This document shows positions 35,043 to 64,000 of a DNA stretch of 64,000 bases, one piece after another. How positions within the stretch are numbered: position 1 is the first letter of the stretch; each line of letters starts with the position of its first letter. The stretch is from a virus (lineage: Duplodnaviria; Caudoviricetes). The stretch lies in IMG/VR virus record IMGVR_UViG_3300032303_002003, positions 68,904 through 132,903 of that record; one strand, written 5' to 3'. Under the pieces are notes generated by a model. It had not been told where the DNA came from and did not search any database. It worked only from the letters and a program-made list of their open reading frames with translations. The position numbers and the translations under genes were made by a program.

Positions 35043-37109
35043 TTAACAATTAGTAACATCTATAGTCCATCCACTTGAAACTAAACTTGTATATGCACTA
35101 TACCCTAATGTATTTGCTGATAAACAACCATTACCTGTTTGATTAAATAATGTTATTGTATCTGGACTCTGCCAATAAGTAGTTGCACTTAAATTAATTA
35201 ATATATTATTTATACCATTATTAGATAATGAATTATCATTTAAATATAAATACTTAATTGAATTAGGGAATGGATTACCAGATAACCAAGGATTAAATGT
35301 TGAGATTGAATTATAACTTAAATTTAATGTTTGTAATGCATTAGGTATTGGTTGATATGGTGAGAAATTAGATATTGAATTATAACTCAAATTTAATGTT
35401 TGTATACTTGGAATTGGGGACGATGGATTAAATGTAGTGATTAAGTTATTGTTCAAATAAAGATTTGTAAAATTTTGTGAAAAAACTATTGTTGGTGTAA
35501 ATCCTGTTAATAAATTATTATTTAAGTACAAATTAGTTAACCCTTGTGGTACATTAGTTGGTGTAAATGCAGTTATACTATTGTATGATAAATCCAATGT
35601 TTGAACTGAGCTTGGTAATGTTGAAATTCTATCATCAAAATTTGTAATTATATTTCCACCTAACATCAAAGAATATAATGATGTTAAACCATCTAATCCT
35701 GTAATATCCCTAAGTCTATTATTACCATACCCTGATGATATATCTAAATAATTAATGATTGTCGCATCGCTTAATGTTGTGGTTGCAGTGTAAGTAGTGT
35801 TTGCGGTATATGTGTGTGTTGGTTGATAATTATCCGTTCCTGTATAAGCACTTGTTCTTCCATCACCCCAATTCACATTCATAGTAAAGTTAGATGAACC
35901 TTGTATAAACCAATTTTGAGTATTTCCTGTTGGACTAAATACAAATTTAATATTTGTTTGATTTGATATGCTAGGTGTTGGTGTGGCGGTTTTAGTTATT
36001 GTAGGGGTTGGAGTTGGTGTTGTTCCTGATAAAGTTCTTGTTGGTGTTGGTGTGGCGGTTTTAGTAGGAGTAACTGTTGGAGTTTTAGTTATTGTAGGGG
36101 TTGGAGTTGGTGTTGTTCCTGATAAAGTTCTTGTTGGTGTTGGTGTGGCGGTTTTAGTAGGAGTAACTGTTGGAGTTTTAGTTTTAGTAGGTGTTATTGT
36201 TGGTGTAGCGGTTTTAGTAGGAGTAACTGTAGGAGTTTTAGTTTTAGTAGGTGTTATTGATGGTGTAATTGATGGCGTTGGCGTATTAGTTCCTGTTGGT
36301 GTAGGGGTTACTTGTCTACAAGGTATATACTCTAAACATTGTCCACAGTAATCACCAGGTCCGTCCGCAACTAAATTATACGAATATCTTGGTCCTGTAA
36401 ATGGAAGCGGTGGATTTGGATTAATTCCAACACACCCGCTAAATCCCAAACTACCTAAACTATCATTACCCTCAACATACCACATTTGATAATCATATGG
36501 TATATTTGGTGGAATATTATCAAGAGCAAATATTGTATTCGTACAACAATCTTTATAATAATAAGTTCCTAGTGGTGCGTTAAATTCCGGAGCCGCTTTA
36601 GAAACAGGTGTTAAAACTTGTGTTGTATCCCCTGTTGTCGCATATACCACATTTGAAATTGTGCTTGTATCATTTAACCTATCATAGTCATCATCAATAT
36701 ATGTTTGACTAAATCCTACAGATTTTCCTTTTGGGATTATCACATTTGTTTGGAAATTTATTGGACTACCTGATTTAACACCTAATTCACAATTAAAACT
36801 CATTGATAAATCACAATCCAAAGGTTTACTTGCTTTAAGATTAAAACCTGTTCCAATTGAACCCCTAAAAACATATGTGTCCATAACAAATGAAACTATA
36901 CCAGAATCAGGTGGAAATTTACCTTCGTTTGTTATATTAATAATATTTGTAAAAGGTGTTGAGAATGACCCATCAATAAAAAAAACATTTTTTGTTTCAT
37001 TTGGTTTTAATGTTTCTTGATACTCCCACATTCCGTCGTCACATCTTCTATAATTAAACGTGGCAACACTATTTCCTGTATTTGTTATGACATATTTTCT
37101 ACAATCCAT
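35043..37109 (-). CDS. large structural/adhesin-like protein: Cys-rich N-terminus, Thr/Pro linker, PKD-like domain, leucine-rich repeats
   Basis: TPT repeats; VNWGDG...HTY; LxxLxLxxNxI repeats; TATTTAT upstream. Confidence 0.75.
35989..36174. repeat. two exact 93-bp tandem units inside the Thr/Pro linker
   Basis: Unit starts gttttagttattgtagggg at 35989 and 36082; lies in a wider TP-coding repeat region (about 35975-36310). Confidence 0.85.
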
Positions 37110-59299: not shown

Positions 59300-59691
59300 A
59301 TTTTATTCCATTTTTTATTTGAATCTAATTTAAAACTTCCCATATGTTCCATTCCCCAACTTGATGGTGTTATAATTGAAAGAAAGGTTGTTTTATTCCC
59401 TCTTTTATATAAGTGATATGTCTCACCAATTATTGGGATGAAGGTGTATTGTGAGCGGTAAACCTCGTCATTCCAATACACCTCCTCCAACATCTTATCA
59501 AATTGTTCTTTCAGTTCTTCGTATCTTGTAGCAAATTCTTTATTTGCATTCATCGCCTGACTTTTCTTCCATCCATCAACATCATCAAGTTTTATTGCCG
59601 GTGCTCCAAGATTTGAACCATAAGTTAATTCTCTTGGGTAATACCCCTTCTCTTCACTCCAAACAACCAAATCAGGTTTTTTTTTACCCAT
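59296..59691 (-). CDS. DUF2452-like protein
   Basis: YGSNLGAPAI...FIPIIGETYHLY...FLSII.P..W...GSFKL. Confidence 0.75.
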   Translation of the reverse strand: MGKKKPDLVVWSEEKGYYPRELTYGSNLGAPAIKLDDVDGWKKSQAMNANKEFATRYEELKEQFDKMLEEVYWNDEVYRSQYTFIPIIGETYHLYKRGNKTTFLSIITPSSWGMEHMGSFKLDSNKKWNKI

Positions 59692-60196
59692 TATTTAATA
59701 TATTTATAATTTTATTTTTTATACCCAATTGTTTAATCCCCTCAAAATCATTAGTCAAAACAAACTTATTCTCCTCATTTGTTATTACCATATACTTACC
59801 AACATTCAAATCATCAATAACAACATAGTTAGTGATATTGTTTCTCGTTACATATTCTCCTATTTGATATGCCCTGTTCATTGTTAAATTACCAAATGAT
59901 GCGAGTTCACTTACTGTAATATCAATAGGTGATTTATTAACTCCATTGAACTTAAAAATCTTATCCAAATCTTCTAAACTAAAATGCTCTCTCCAATCTG
60001 AACTCAAAACAATATCCGCACCTGTCTCATCCAAGATTTCATTAAATATCTTAACACACTTGGGGTCAAACGGATATGGTATTTTTATTTCTTTCGCAAT
60101 ATCATTCTTCTCCCAAAATTTCTTTCGGTTCATCATATACTGCTTGTTGGTTGCCAACACGCCATCTAAATCAAGGAATATATTTGCTTTACTCAT
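59684..60196 (-). CDS. HAD domain protein (HAD_SAK_2, RNA-repair-associated type)
   Basis: IFLDLDGVL, IVLSSDWR, YVVIDD. Confidence 0.85.
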   Translation of the reverse strand: MSKANIFLDLDGVLATNKQYMMNRKKFWEKNDIAKEIKIPYPFDPKCVKIFNEILDETGADIVLSSDWREHFSLEDLDKIFKFNGVNKSPIDITVSELASFGNLTMNRAYQIGEYVTRNNITNYVVIDDLNVGKYMVITNEENKFVLTNDFEGIKQLGIKNKIINILNNG

Positions 60197-60213
60197 ATCA
60201 CAAAGATAAGAAA

Positions 60214-60420
60214 TTATTTTGTAATTAAAGTAAATTTCTCCGCATCTTCAGCTAATTTTTTAATTTCTTCAGGACTTTCTTTTACGTTAATAACTTGTCC
60301 CCCAATTGTATAGACAATTGAAAAATTATCATATTCTGTGATATTACATATCATAATTGGGTTAATATGATGCTTTAAATCACCCGCGGCTGAATTTAAT
60401 TCTATATATTTGTTTTGCAT
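60214..60420 (-). CDS. small FlbD-like beta protein
   Basis: INPIMI..I.E...VKESPEEI. Confidence 0.55.
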   Translation of the reverse strand: MQNKYIELNSAAGDLKHHINPIMICNITEYDNFSIVYTIGGQVINVKESPEEIKKLAEDAEKFTLITK

Positions 60421-60447
60421 ATTTTTAATGTTTTATTTTACACTTTT

Positions 60448-61068
60448 TTAATTTTTATACTTAATTTGGAAGTTGTCTTTAATATATTCTATTTGCTCGT
60501 AGGTTAATGAACCACTCACATTATTTTCGTTCCACCAAGTAATAGGAACAAAATATGTACCTGTAAAATAATCACCTAACCTATTTGGATTGTTTAATCC
60601 AACATTTTTCTTTACTAACTTAAAGAGTAGATATGTTTTATTTCTTATAGAACAATCAAACTTTATTCCCGCCAAATAATTCTCTGAGAATACTGAATTA
60701 CCCGTTATTTGGTAGTTGTCTTCAATATAATATTGATTAAGTGGTTCTCGTACTGGTTTTGGTTTCTCAACTTCAACAATTGGTTCTGTTTTAACAATAA
60801 TAGGTTTTGATTTTTGTTTTTTAACTACCTTAGGCGTCTCAATTACCTTTGGTTTTTCAACAGGTTTTGGCGTCTCAACAACAACTTTAACATTATCAAA
60901 TTTTTCAACTCTACTTAATAATTTTAAATTATTTAAACTATCTTTTTCTCGGGCTAAAGAATTTTGTGCTTCAACAAATGCAGGAAAATAGTCGTCATCC
61001 ACCGACACCTGAGCCCAACTTGTGTTTATCGCCATAATTAAACCTATGGCTATACATATTTTTTTCAT
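60448..61068 (-). CDS. secreted hypothetical protein
   Basis: Signal peptide MKKICIAIGLIMAINTSWAQ; K/P/E-rich linker. Confidence 0.65.
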   Translation of the reverse strand: MKKICIAIGLIMAINTSWAQVSVDDDYFPAFVEAQNSLAREKDSLNNLKLLSRVEKFDNVKVVVETPKPVEKPKVIETPKVVKKQKSKPIIVKTEPIVEVEKPKPVREPLNQYYIEDNYQITGNSVFSENYLAGIKFDCSIRNKTYLLFKLVKKNVGLNNPNRLGDYFTGTYFVPITWWNENNVSGSLTYEQIEYIKDNFQIKYKN

Positions 61069-61277
61069 ATTACAATGTTATAATATTTTCTTGATATAGT
61101 CAAATTTCACTTGACTTTTGGGTGGGTGGATTAAACTTATTTCTTAACCAATTCTTTACTCTTAATGGTAATGGGACGTGCAACGAACCTTCAATCTCGG
61201 CAAATATTTCATTCCAAGTATCAAAATGTGTTGCAGGTTTATTGATTGTATCTATTTTATCTGTTTTTTCTTTCATA

Positions 61278-61484
61278 TTAATCTTGTGTATATTCGTGAG
61301 TGTCTGGGCCATATGCCTTTAATATTGCAACCCCATTTTCAATAATGTAATTCATTTCTTTATCAACTTCACCCCAAAGCTTCAACCAAAAAGAATGTTG
61401 TTCGTGTATTGGATATGATACACCATTTACTTTTAATAACCAATTATCCCATCCTGTTTTAAATAATTTACCTTTCATAACCAT
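61278..61484 (-). CDS. hypothetical protein
   Basis: ORF track. Confidence 0.55.
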   Translation of the reverse strand: MVMKGKLFKTGWDNWLLKVNGVSYPIHEQHSFWLKLWGEVDKEMNYIIENGVAILKAYGPDTHEYTQD

Positions 61485-61704
61485 CTATAATTTGTTTAAA
61501 TTTTATCATAAAATCAATATTCTCTTGCTCGTGATAAACGTGTATGAGTCTAGCATAAATGAACTCCAAATGTTCTTTATCCTTATTTCTTTCCGCTTTC
61601 TCTTTGAGGGGAAGTTTCATATTGTTTTTCATAAGTTCTTTTACCCTTGCAGCAACGTCACCCATAAGTTCTTCACTAACTCCTGGTATTAAATCAATAT
61701 TCAT
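61468..61704 (-). CDS. hypothetical protein
   Basis: ORF track. Confidence 0.55.
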   Translation of the reverse strand: MNIDLIPGVSEELMGDVAARVKELMKNNMKLPLKEKAERNKDKEHLEFIYARLIHVYHEQENIDFMIKFKQIIDGYER

Positions 61705-61805
61705 ATTATTTTTTTTTATTTTTTCTTTTTAGTTCCCACGCCATCAGGAATCCACACACGGATATAACCCCAATTAAAACACTATCATTTATCATATTAT
61801 TATTT

Positions 61806-62939
61806 TTAATGCGAATCTTCTACATTGTGCTTTTCAGAGTAAATAAGGTAATCCGGGTTTATAACTTTTGAGATTTTAGAACGTTCGCCACTAGTATGTT
61901 TAACCACTATACCTTCGTGTGGAACTTTGGTTTTGGGTATGAAATTATTAACCACAAACATATCCTGAACTTCTTTACTCCATTTACCAACATATAATTC
62001 TTCTACGTGTGGTAATCTTAATAAGTCATTTAATATCAATTTAGTATTAAGTGTATCCAAGTATTTACCATCTATCATTATATCAAACCCCACAAACTTT
62101 ATCTCTTCCAAACCATAATCATATCCTTTCTGTATTCCCGCACCATAGATTTCACCATATAATGTTATACCTGAACCAGTGTCTTCTAATAAATAATGTT
62201 TAACAAAATTCCATAACTTTTCTTTTATGTTATATTTGTCCTCTATCTCCCTCCATACATCAGTTGAGTAAAACCCTTGCGAATCAGAACCTTTCTCAAC
62301 ATTATGGGAACCATAGCAAAAATCATAATCTATCCATTTATCGGCAACTCTAAAAAACTTTTTAACTTTATCCCAAAATGATAATTTTACTTTTTTAACC
62401 ACTGCAAATCTCGCATTTGTTCCGTGTATCTTCCTTGTTATTTGGACGATGTCTTCCTCATTAAACATATCAGGAACGTTCTTTTGATTTGGGAACTTAT
62501 AATATACCAAGAAGTTCGGGTTTTCCGAATATCTTATTGTTCTACCTGAACCAAGAGTTATTTGTTTAACTGGTGGCTCATACTTGAATATCTTTAAAAT
62601 TTCCATCACATCGTCTCCTTCGTAATATACACCTTTAGTACGAGTAGGAACATAACTGAATGGAATAATCAAACACTCACTATAAACACCTCTTAACTTT
62701 ACTGTACGAACTCTCTGTCCTTTACGGAGATAGTTAGTTACGTTCATTGCGTCAGATAAACTCTCGGGTATAACCGCATCGGTGGTTGCAACAACAACCA
62801 AATCACCAACATTATATTCCCCCTTCTGTATGATGCAATTCCATCCACCGATGCGGGCTTGTTCTATTTTATCTGCACCAACTATTTCTTTTATTTCATC
62901 TATCTTTGCGACATAAGCGCAACTGTTAACATTTTCCAT
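61806..62939 (-). CDS. RNA ligase, DRB0094/Rnl2-like with N-terminal OB-like domain
   Basis: ADKIE..GW.C, VKLRGVYSE; motif I TRKIHGTN, YGEIYG, FDI, HEGIVVK, KVINPDYL. Confidence 0.9.
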   Translation of the reverse strand: MENVNSCAYVAKIDEIKEIVGADKIEQARIGGWNCIIQKGEYNVGDLVVVATTDAVIPESLSDAMNVTNYLRKGQRVRTVKLRGVYSECLIIPFSYVPTRTKGVYYEGDDVMEILKIFKYEPPVKQITLGSGRTIRYSENPNFLVYYKFPNQKNVPDMFNEEDIVQITRKIHGTNARFAVVKKVKLSFWDKVKKFFRVADKWIDYDFCYGSHNVEKGSDSQGFYSTDVWREIEDKYNIKEKLWNFVKHYLLEDTGSGITLYGEIYGAGIQKGYDYGLEEIKFVGFDIMIDGKYLDTLNTKLILNDLLRLPHVEELYVGKWSKEVQDMFVVNNFIPKTKVPHEGIVVKHTSGERSKISKVINPDYLIYSEKHNVEDSH

Positions 62940-63070
62940 AACTTTTTATTTACGAGTTAAAAATTCATATATGACTTGAACGGTTGCACCAAAAAATATG
63001 GATGCCGCCGCGAATAGTAAAAAATATACCAACCCAATATCCCAATTATTTTTTTTCATTCTTATTAAAT

Positions 63071-63925
63071 TTATTGTGTTACTTCCTCCGAGTCTAACTT
63101 TCTCCATCTAAATGGTGGTGCTATGGCGTTTCTTGGTGTTATTTCCTCCGATTTTAATTCTTCTTCCGTCTCGTATGAAAGCCCTAACCACCGCCCAACA
63201 GGTGTAATTTCCTGAGATTTTAATTCTTCTTCCATATCAGAGCCCGAAAATAAAAACAATGAATCTGGTATAACTTCCACCGAGTTTAATTCTTCTTGCA
63301 CCCTCATCAATTGATTTGTAATACTGGTATGTGGTGTCACTTCCTCCTGTTTTAAGTTTCTCCAACTATATGGTGGTGCAATGGCCTCTTTTGGTGTTAC
63401 TTCCTCATTTTTTAATTGTGATTCCACCAACTGAAAGGAACAGGCATGTTGAGCTCTAGGTGTCACTTCCTCCGATTTTAATTGTGCTTCCACCTTATAC
63501 CATAAAGGTTGTCTTTTTAATTTTGGTGTAACTACCTCCTGTTTTAATTGTTCTTCCACCTGTTGTTTCATAACAAGCCAAGAAGCTTTTGGTGTAACTT
63601 CCTCCTGTTTTAATTGAGATTCCACCTTTCCCCAAGCAAGTTCCTCCTCCATAAAAGGTCTAACTTCCCCCGATTTTAATTGTGCTTCCACCCATTCCTT
63701 TATAAGTTGTTGGGTTTCTTCGTAACCATAGGAGAACATATCGGAAATATTACTCCAAACTGAATATAAAACCCATAATGTGCCAGATTTTTCCAATTCC
63801 AATATTACCTTATCATCTTTTTTGAAGAAGGTAGAATTAGGATAATATTTTGATTTAACAGAAAACATACCCTTAAACAAGAATTCCAAATAATCAAACT
63901 GAACTTCCCTTACTCTATCTTTCAT
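63071..63925 (-). CDS. N-terminal module followed by about 9.5 repeat-plus-variable 22-aa units
   Basis: VExQLKxEEVTP repeated with unique 10-aa inserts; TATATTTG promoter at 63957-63964. Confidence 0.75.
   Translation of the reverse strand: MKDRVREVQFDYLEFLFKGMFSVKSKYYPNSTFFKKDDKVILELEKSGTLWVLYSVWSNISDMFSYGYEETQQLIKEWVEAQLKSGEVRPFMEEELAWGKVESQLKQEEVTPKASWLVMKQQVEEQLKQEVVTPKLKRQPLWYKVEAQLKSEEVTPRAQHACSFQLVESQLKNEEVTPKEAIAPPYSWRNLKQEEVTPHTSITNQLMRVQEELNSVEVIPDSLFLFSGSDMEEELKSQEITPVGRWLGLSYETEEELKSEEITPRNAIAPPFRWRKLDSEEVTQ
63075..63692. repeat. CRISPR-geometry array: 10 degenerate repeats (36 bp; two of 34 bp) with 9 spacers (30 bp; two of 26 bp)
   Basis: Repeat starts at 63075, 63135, 63201, 63267, 63333, 63393, 63459, 63525, 63591, 63657; consensus GGTGTnACTTCCTCCnnTTTTAATTGTnnTTCCACC. 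Confidence 0.9.
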
Positions 63926-64000
63926 TTTTTCTTAAATTTAATTAAATCAATAATTGCAAATATAACAAGAACTCCCATAATAATCAAAAAATTTATCAAC

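Follow-up and report, generated by a model that had tools for sequence, protein, structure and literature searches.

Ten 36-nt repeats with CRISPR-like geometry inside a reading frame of an uncultured freshwater jumbo phage

The closest described counterparts of the element reported here are the CRISPR (short palindromic repeats, clustered and regularly interspaced) arrays of Bacteroidota and the compact arrays and single repeats carried by viruses. Type VI-B repeats are 36 nucleotides (nt) long with 5′-GUUG/CAAC-3′ ends, alternate with 30-nt spacers and give a 66-nt CRISPR RNA (crRNA) (10.1101/092577). VI-B loci lack cas1 and cas2 and receive their spacers in trans (10.1101/092577, PMC8092290), and in Flavobacterium columnare, in which the II-C and VI-B repeats are both 36 bp, the VI-B array is filled in trans by the II-C Cas1 through a ruler mechanism (PMC8092290). 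Huge phages carry compact CRISPR arrays without cas1, cas2 or cas4, sometimes with the repeat of their host (Al-Shayeb et al. 2020, PMC7162821), and viral solitary repeat units serve as RNA anti-CRISPRs (Racrs), which are small non-coding RNAs with their own promoter, none of them reported there for type VI (Camara-Wilpert et al. 2023, PMC10651486). Here we describe an array of similar geometry that lies within a protein-coding gene of an uncultured freshwater-lake jumbo phage. The DNA analysed, called the window throughout, is the last 64 kb (G+C 30.4%) of the 132.9-kb IMG/VR virus record IMGVR_UViG_3300032303_002003, which is rated 44% complete and thus suggests a phage of about 300 kb. The array gene is an open reading frame (ORF) at window positions 63071..63925 on the minus strand; it encodes 284 residues without an internal stop and lies 75 nt short of the contig end, and the array takes up its last two thirds.

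The array is probably an aged and reshuffled member of a family of translated arrays of CRISPR geometry that bear the footprint of CRISPR-type integration. It is real and goes beyond chance, and it is neither a working CRISPR array nor an ordinary protein repeat. An earlier note, made from the letters of the window alone, had described an in-frame, polar array of CRISPR geometry; its observation was confirmed and its interpretation partly supported, and the reshuffling of the window cassettes among relatives is something it did not foresee.

By repeat profile, ten 36-nt repeats run from window position 63692 down to 63075 on the minus strand, starting at gene coordinates 234, 300, 366, 432, 498, 558, 624, 690, 756 and 816, with periods in order of 66, 66, 66, 66, 60, 66, 66, 66 and 60 nt, that is, the seven 66-nt and two 60-nt periods counted before. 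A general repeat search returned eight copies at 66/126-nt spacing together with a 92-nt pair, 79% alike, that contains both short units; the two 24-nt spacers are also 79% alike, and the short units are copies of each other, as had been proposed. Base 1 of the repeat occupies the third position of the codon before it, and the whole array lies in the gene frame and is stop-free, again as claimed. The features are as follows, with relatives named by number.

63071..63925, minus strand: whole gene, N-terminal domain (N-domain) plus array, 284 residues, stop codon at 63071-63073 (ORF list and 58 homologous proteins)
63692..63925, minus strand: N-domain, codons 1-78, ending in an invariant Trp; the last G of the Trp codon is base 1 of repeat 1
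63657..63692, minus strand: repeat 1, encoding VEAQLKSGEVRP, where the last helix of the N-domain (68-85 in the model) has its C-terminal end
63627..63656, minus strand: spacer 1, 30 nt, FMEEELAWGK, present in L009 too, as unit 5
63591..63626, minus strand: repeat 2 (repeat profile)
63561..63590, minus strand: spacer 2, 30 nt, KASWLVMKQQ, common to L007 and L008
63525..63560, minus strand: repeat 3 (repeat profile)
63495..63524, minus strand: spacer 3, 30 nt, KLKRQPLWYK, common to L007
63459..63494, minus strand: repeat 4, nearest to consensus (1 mismatch)
63429..63458, minus strand: spacer 4, 30 nt, RAQHACSFQL, common to L007 and L008
63393..63428, minus strand: repeat 5 (repeat profile)
63333..63392, minus strand: short unit, 24-nt spacer 5 (KEAIAPPY) and degenerate repeat 6 (14 mismatches) (repeat search and profile)
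63135..63332, minus strand: three units, spacers HTSITNQLMR, DSLFLFSGSD and VGRWLGLSYE with repeats 7-9; a 198-nt block missing from L007 and from one run-X1 contig
63075..63134, minus strand: second short unit, a copy of the one at 63333..63392, with 24-nt spacer 9 (RNAIAPPF) and degenerate terminal repeat 10 (15 mismatches)

The five repeats on the N-domain side differ from the repeat consensus at 2, 4, 4, 1 and 5 positions, as against 14, 6, 7, 6 and 15 for the distal five, which confirms the polarity noticed earlier; no two window repeats are identical, and their mean pairwise identity is 72%. The seven 30-nt spacers resemble each other no more than chance allows (mean pairwise identity 0.268 vs 0.265 ± 0.017 in shuffles). 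The GGTG/CACC ends, which had been taken as terminal inverted repeats, are indeed found in repeats 1-5, but they simply equal the codons xxG-GTG (Val) and ACA-CC (Thr-Pro). Tandem Repeats Finder, run on 60000-64000, placed none of its nine rows within the array, which was to be expected of units that are only half alike.

Sequence conservation shows that the repeat unit is an entity of the DNA and not of the protein. This follows from third codon positions that are as conserved as first and second ones and from exact 36-nt copies in relatives. Among 59 distinct repeats of the window's lineage (profile hits scoring <15 dropped), information amounted to 1.30, 1.44 and 1.47 bits at first, second and third codon positions, respectively, and at four third codon positions of the repeat G is fixed or nearly so, against 10.9% G at the third positions of the contig. 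Repeat position 25 is G in 59/59 (GAG/GGG), with GAG making up 18% of the Glu codons in the contig, and the first repeat codon is GTG in 32/59, with GTG accounting for 7.9% of the Val codons. Similarly, 54 of 74 distinct contexts have G as repeat base 1, compared with the same 10.9%. In the window itself, the edge base is G in all six codons that have an A-ending synonym, as had been pointed out before (P = 1.5e-5, a post hoc value derived from contig codon usage, with a G-ending share of 0.13-0.18 in 99 long ORFs); the constraint at DNA or RNA level deduced from it is supported by the codon-position information and the G-ending codons. The unit consists of 36 nt, which begin with the last base of the Trp-78 codon and close with the second base of a Pro codon, plus about 30 nt, so that its boundary falls inside codons. 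Cassette-type protein repeats are alike over their whole unit and vary mostly at synonymous sites; in this array, likeness does not span the unit and variation is not richest at synonymous sites.

In metagenomes we found 58 homologs of 172-379 residues, all of which consist of the same 78-residue N-domain followed by units of mostly 22 residues, with unit lengths of 15-25 residues also occurring. Relatives among viral contigs were found only with the homolog alignment A1 as query, a scan with a single protein having returned none, and A1 found no relative in 185,579 species genomes. Array-bearing genomes hold several paralogs, each with at least one repeat. At L003:7980-9392 (same in L004 and L022) four N-domain paralogs stand in tandem; each has one repeat, and one of them has a single 66-nt unit in addition. 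Three separate loci of the gene family (L013, L021, L022) lie on the 258-kb contig to which L013 belongs.

The arrays of these relatives show growth beside the N-domain by exact duplication of repeat 1 around a new, unrelated insert of 29-31 nt. In L019 one 36-mer occurs seven times, the copies showing a single difference among them, around 30-nt spacers that are mutually unlike, and there the third base of the Pro codon, which is the first spacer base, varies (T, A, A, G, C, T). The branch L005/L006 (309-kb record; 26% protein identity) has a different 36-mer, with four to five exact copies in L006, 30-nt spacers and the same codon phase as the window lineage. Repeats 1 and 2 are identical in L002 and L018 and differ by one mismatch in L017, and the spacer enclosed by them was found in no other sequence. 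A before/after pair exists in L003, where paralog 8720 has the repeat and a 16-nt tail, and paralog 8314 has the repeat, 30 nt, the repeat again and the same tail. Consistently, cassettes found in no other protein make up 24/122 at units 1-2 vs 15/415 further on (61 distinct proteins; the sequences are related, not independent, and units were split by a custom pattern). This polar growth with duplication of the first repeat was seen in the relatives and not in the window array.

These relatives also show that unit insertion is blind to coding, with a stop introduced by one insert and the frame lost in one array. At L002:8001-8888, and likewise in L010, a TAG stop arises where the terminal TA of the newest spacer meets the first base, G, of the next repeat; the gene is thereby split into two ORFs, of 99 and 194 codons, the latter beginning at the repeat ATG. 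In G001, a complete virus record analysed whole, an N-domain gene at L037:14812-15029 (G001 274812-275029, minus strand) leads into an array of three identical 36-nt repeats and one further, degenerate repeat; the spacers of 29, 29 and 31 nt break the frame, so the ORF ends inside repeat 2 and the array continues past the stop, with its three repeats still perfect.

Once in place, the array frame is under selection to stay open: a stop codon occurs in 1 of 76 distinct family spacers in the gene frame, as against 43/76 in each of the other forward frames and 31-39/76 in the reverse frames. Among these spacers 55 are 30 nt long, and all lengths are multiples of three by construction, because only in-phase repeats were counted. 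Cassettes, moreover, move between genomes. The earlier note had called the spacers unique, which holds within the array and fails beyond it, as all nine window cassettes recur in relatives (L007, L008, L009, L013, L002, L011) with a different rank there, and of 56 cassette families 14 are present in at least two of 12 genes, at differing ranks. Identity at the DNA level is frequent (24 of 81 shared cassette pairs are 100% identical), and five genomes, whose N-domains are 83-92% identical, share the HTSITNQLMR cassette without a DNA difference over 47 nt, the crossover lying inside the following repeat. Such recurrence in other orders, often with identical DNA, indicates that cassettes are recombined and reordered among phages. 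Whole units also come and go: the closest relative, L007 (98% in the N-domain), is without the 198-nt block of three units, a run-X1 contig has the same joint, and another run-X1 contig skips exactly 66 nt. A run-X8 contig matches 63043-63428 with zero differences, and stretches left uncovered by contigs in runs X4, X8 and X18 carry no meaning.

A cas1 profile, with a control positive in 7/14 genomes, was negative in all five phage records tested, including the whole 132.9-kb contig and a 309-kb record rated complete (cas2, cas9 and cas13b were not searched). The earlier statement that the window lacks cas genes was thus checked for cas1 alone, on the whole contig. The complete 309-kb genome without cas1 holds at least five such arrays.

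A fixed 36-bp target duplicated around an insert of fixed length, at one end and blind to coding, is what we read as the footprint of a CRISPR integrase. Such an enzyme would make staggered cuts 36 bp apart, join in an insert of fixed length and, after gap repair, leave a new unit. It would most likely be host Cas1-Cas2 acting in trans, given that the phages are without cas1 and that the 36+30 geometry is that of Bacteroidota type VI-B and Flavobacterium II-C arrays. After insertion, units are kept in frame and stop-free by selection as their sequence drifts, and are traded and reordered among phages via recombination inside repeats. The fuller proposal, that CRISPR-like capture writes 22-codon units into a phage ORF and that the captured DNA becomes 10-residue peptide cassettes, kept by selection and traded by recombination, is a possibility that we put forward tentatively. 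Of the options in the earlier note, a gene that takes up 30-bp inserts and translates them best fits the family with its exact duplications and open frame; ongoing uptake in the window was not shown, as the repeats all differ and the cassettes are shared and reshuffled. For another of its options, a cassette array of alternative C-termini, the one supporting fact is that repeat 1 is also the end of the N-domain.

A number of results weigh against an origin by CRISPR-type integration. The window array gives no sign of recent uptake, with repeats 1-15 positions off consensus and all cassettes shared, and cassette order conflicts between genomes, unlike the chronological record of a CRISPR array. 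Shared cassettes have a pN/pS (ratio of nonsynonymous to synonymous polymorphism) of 0.45, a value biased low by the 60% identity threshold, vs 0.27 in the N-domain, which indicates some constraint on the cassettes at the protein level. In the stretch that would serve as leader, the final 15 codons of the N-domain, synonymous sites vary to an ordinary degree (6 of 10 invariant residues), with no sign of constraint on the nucleotides. In protospacer searches covering phage and viral DNA, not bacterial genomes, neither 64 spacers compared with 350 kb of DNA from this phage and its relatives nor 14 G001 spacers compared with the complete G001 genome gave anything above shuffled controls; cultured-phage records yielded chance-level matches only (E up to 10), and four of four spacer cores had no exact match in viral contigs. 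On the RNA side, the repeats fold no better than shuffles (z ~0), with no compensatory change between repeat positions 2 and 35. Their ends read GGUG/CACC and their sense-strand centre AAUUAAAA, and the GUUG/CAAC ends, poly-U loop and defined fold of VI-B repeats are absent. Rfam, searched with the window stretch at E up to 10, assigned no family and gave one chance match (SodB thermometer, E 0.95); on the G001 array it gave five chance matches. Finally, window-type repeats resemble the repeat of a non-coding, CRISPR-like array in G001 (described below) with z of 2-6 vs shuffles, a likeness that is uninformative because the antisense control is equally high (mean z 3.9 sense, 4.1 antisense).

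Several other explanations share part of this evidence. An RNA device, that is, a Cas-less mini-array or decoy whose transcript is bound and cut by host Cas13b (or Cas9/tracrRNA) and loads it with harmless or phage-chosen guides, with translation being secondary, is in our judgement unlikely; it concerns function and is compatible with the preferred explanation of CRISPR-type integration. It would account for the nucleotide-level conservation of the repeat, for the several paralogs per genome with at least one repeat each, and for the lack of spacer matches to the carrier phage, as expected if self-targeting guides are lethal, and 36+30 nt equals the 66-nt VI-B crRNA unit (10.1101/092577). Precedents are the huge phages whose compact arrays lack cas1/cas2 and sometimes use the host's repeat (PMC7162821) and the viral solitary repeats that act as RNA anti-CRISPRs, with none found for type VI (PMC10651486). 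It leaves the strong selection for an open ORF unexplained, however, and repeats decayed to 72% mean identity would poorly suit a protein that reads a defined repeat; the ends differ from GUUG/CAAC without a fold signal, and the sole trace on the RNA side is one metatranscriptome contig of a related variant that touches the gene, which is no evidence of transcription. The ordinary protein tandem repeat, with 22-residue units made by unequal crossing-over, of which 12 residues are kept by conversion or purifying selection and 10 are diversified, appears quite unlikely. It fits the in-frame, stop-free array that is selected to remain so, the conservation of cassettes across genomes (where related variants with point changes exist), the natural loss and gain of units in multiples of 66 nt, and the family unit lengths of 15-25 residues. 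It does not account for third codon positions conserved equally with rare G-ending codons, identical 36-mers flanking spacers of chance-level identity, a unit boundary inside codons, a new spacer with a stop, or the 29/29/31-nt array that keeps perfect repeats out of frame, beyond the reach of protein selection. The earlier note had named spacers invariant across homologs, missing protospacers and repeat variation at synonymous sites as marks of such a repeat; homologs do share spacers and the searches of phage and viral DNA gave no protospacer, yet synonymous sites are not where the repeats mainly vary. The DNA of L019, L006, L002 and G001 led us to reject a protein mosaic made by recombination alone.

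The units might also be written by an unrecognised phage-encoded enzyme other than Cas1, with the N-domain protein possibly marking the site, which we hold to be distinctly improbable. The five or more arrays in a complete genome without cas1 would agree with it, as would the occurrence of arrays only behind one domain family, in lineages with different repeat sequences, and the N-domain's weak resemblance to DNA-binding folds of the winged-helix type (best Z 5.8, root-mean-square deviation (rmsd) 3.0, 64 aligned). Yet fold matches of this size are too weak to indicate more than a common arrangement, known host systems have exactly the same 36/30 ruler (PMC8092290, 10.1101/092577), and the search for a candidate enzyme was limited to cas1. 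It is highly improbable that the gene encodes a multi-core precursor, in which conserved 12-residue recognition segments surround variable 10-residue cores that are excised as peptides. The leader-like domain, the alternation of conserved and variable segments and a weak likeness of the N-domain to the peptide-binding winged helices of PqqD (Z 4.7) and TbiB1 (Z 4.0) speak for it; Z values of this size do not rise above noise, such a precursor would not explain the features at DNA level, and the neighbours seen next to the gene, a small membrane ORF, an RNA ligase and a HAD protein, include neither a protease nor a maturase or transporter. The related candidate of a RiPP-like (ribosomally synthesized and post-translationally modified peptide) precursor was set aside with the fold likeness at noise level.

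As to the product, the N-domain has 21 invariant columns (V40..W78, E80) in 57 sequences, and an AlphaFold2 model built with A1 predicts it at a pLDDT (predicted local distance difference test) of 80-89 over residues 1-80 as one helix, four strands and two helices. In the model, the last helix runs into the repeat-1 residues and is followed by low-confidence short helices, with spacers mostly <50 pLDDT. Conserved C-terminal cassettes of three or four kinds recur among homologs, from which it would follow that inserts between domain and tail must keep the frame. The product may be a small folded N-domain with a tail of short helices that is mostly unstructured, can be expanded and closes with the conserved C-terminal cassettes. 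Fold searches with the predicted N-domain name no family, the matches amounting to no more than a common arrangement: VIA-align gave the DpnI winged helix as best, all others being <5.2 in Z; BFVD returned only uncharacterised phage proteins (E 1.4e-3 or worse), and ESM Atlas structure rows had TM (template modelling) scores of 0.39-0.51 (YjbR, DUF1801 and others). By sequence, the product matched none of the Pfam families at E <=0.1 and only faintly some PHROG entries (best E 0.031).

Downstream of the array gene on the same strand lies an RNA ligase (61806-62939, minus; PF09414, PHROG 968, PHA02142 OB-fold), and a few genes from it a HAD_SAK_2 domain protein (59684-60196, minus), which places an RNA-repair pair just downstream of the array gene. 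The short ORF at 62945-63058 (minus), between array gene and RNA ligase, encodes by eye a 37-residue peptide with one hydrophobic stretch (membrane). The 206-residue ORF at 60448-61068 (minus) has a signal-peptide-like start and a PK-rich run of short repeats (ETPKPVEKPKVIETPKVVKK), with no Pfam family. Elsewhere in the window, 35989-36267 contains GTTGG/GTAGG-rich tandem repeats of 93, 60 and 30 nt (95% matches), and G/T-rich repeats resembling them occur at G001 81200-81560 and 164300-164560. A tRNA search of the 64-kb window found none.

G001 carries in addition the non-coding array mentioned above, at L038:11930-12240 (G001 291930-292240, minus), with four to five 36-nt GTTG...CAAC repeats and spacers of 30, 29, 30 and 30 nt. 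It lies about 220 nt behind a 443-residue protein (L038:12452-13783) with a Cas12f1-like TNB domain (E 2.5e-20) and an OrfB_IS605 match below cut-off, and may be read as a miniature type V-like locus or as a VI-B-like Cas-less mini-array beside an insertion sequence (IS) element. No homolog of this protein was found in the window's contig, and the exact 21-nt core of the CRISPR-like repeat had no match in the 185,579 species genomes.

If the tentative proposal of capture holds, the gene would be a natural insertional peptide library, with a mode of diversification unlike mutation, reverse-transcriptase-based targeting or cassette inversion, and adaptive-immunity machinery would be linked to protein diversification. 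Should the units be made by CRISPR-type integration, they would represent spacer acquisition on the phage's own coding sequence with a translated product, in a natural system where a fixed ruler (36+30 = 22 codons) keeps insertions in frame. They would also be the first type VI-like repeat units on viruses, as the published survey of viral solitary repeats lists every type except VI (PMC10651486). For annotation, such arrays escape both CRISPR finders, owing to their position inside ORFs and their decay, and tandem-repeat finders.

A search of the full-text literature, with supplements and subscription journals outside its coverage, found no paper describing a translated CRISPR-type array. Surface proteins used for typing carry repeats whose units are gained, lost and reordered by recombination in conserved segments, giving mosaic alleles in the population. 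The array family resembles such cassette-type protein repeats in the gain, loss and reordering of units by recombination, and differs from them in that only one half of each unit is conserved, as DNA, the other half being unrelated. It shares with Bacteroidota VI-B arrays and the II-C/VI-B arrays of F. columnare the 36-nt repeats, 30-nt unrelated spacers, 66-nt unit and 4-nt complementary ends, as well as growth at one end with duplication of the first repeat, a degenerate terminal repeat and presumed transcription from the "leader" side. Unlike them, the phage array sits inside an ORF that is kept open and presumably translated, and its "leader" is a coding domain; its ends are GGTG/CACC in the window's lineage, its repeats decay with distance, its cassettes are reshuffled, no protospacer was found, and no cas gene lies nearby (cas1 tested). 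With the compact arrays of huge phages it has in common the jumbo-phage carrier, the few repeats (median six there, ten here), the lack of acquisition genes and a possible use of host Cas proteins, and it differs from them in being coding, those arrays being non-coding and the description consulted making no mention of arrays translated as protein (PMC7162821). Finally, like solitary repeat units (PMC10651486) and virus-borne mini-arrays (PMC6858448), it places look-alikes of CRISPR repeats on viral genomes without cas genes, and the single-repeat members of the family resemble the viral solitary units; unlike in Racrs as described there, the repeat is here the coding end of a protein domain (PMC10651486).

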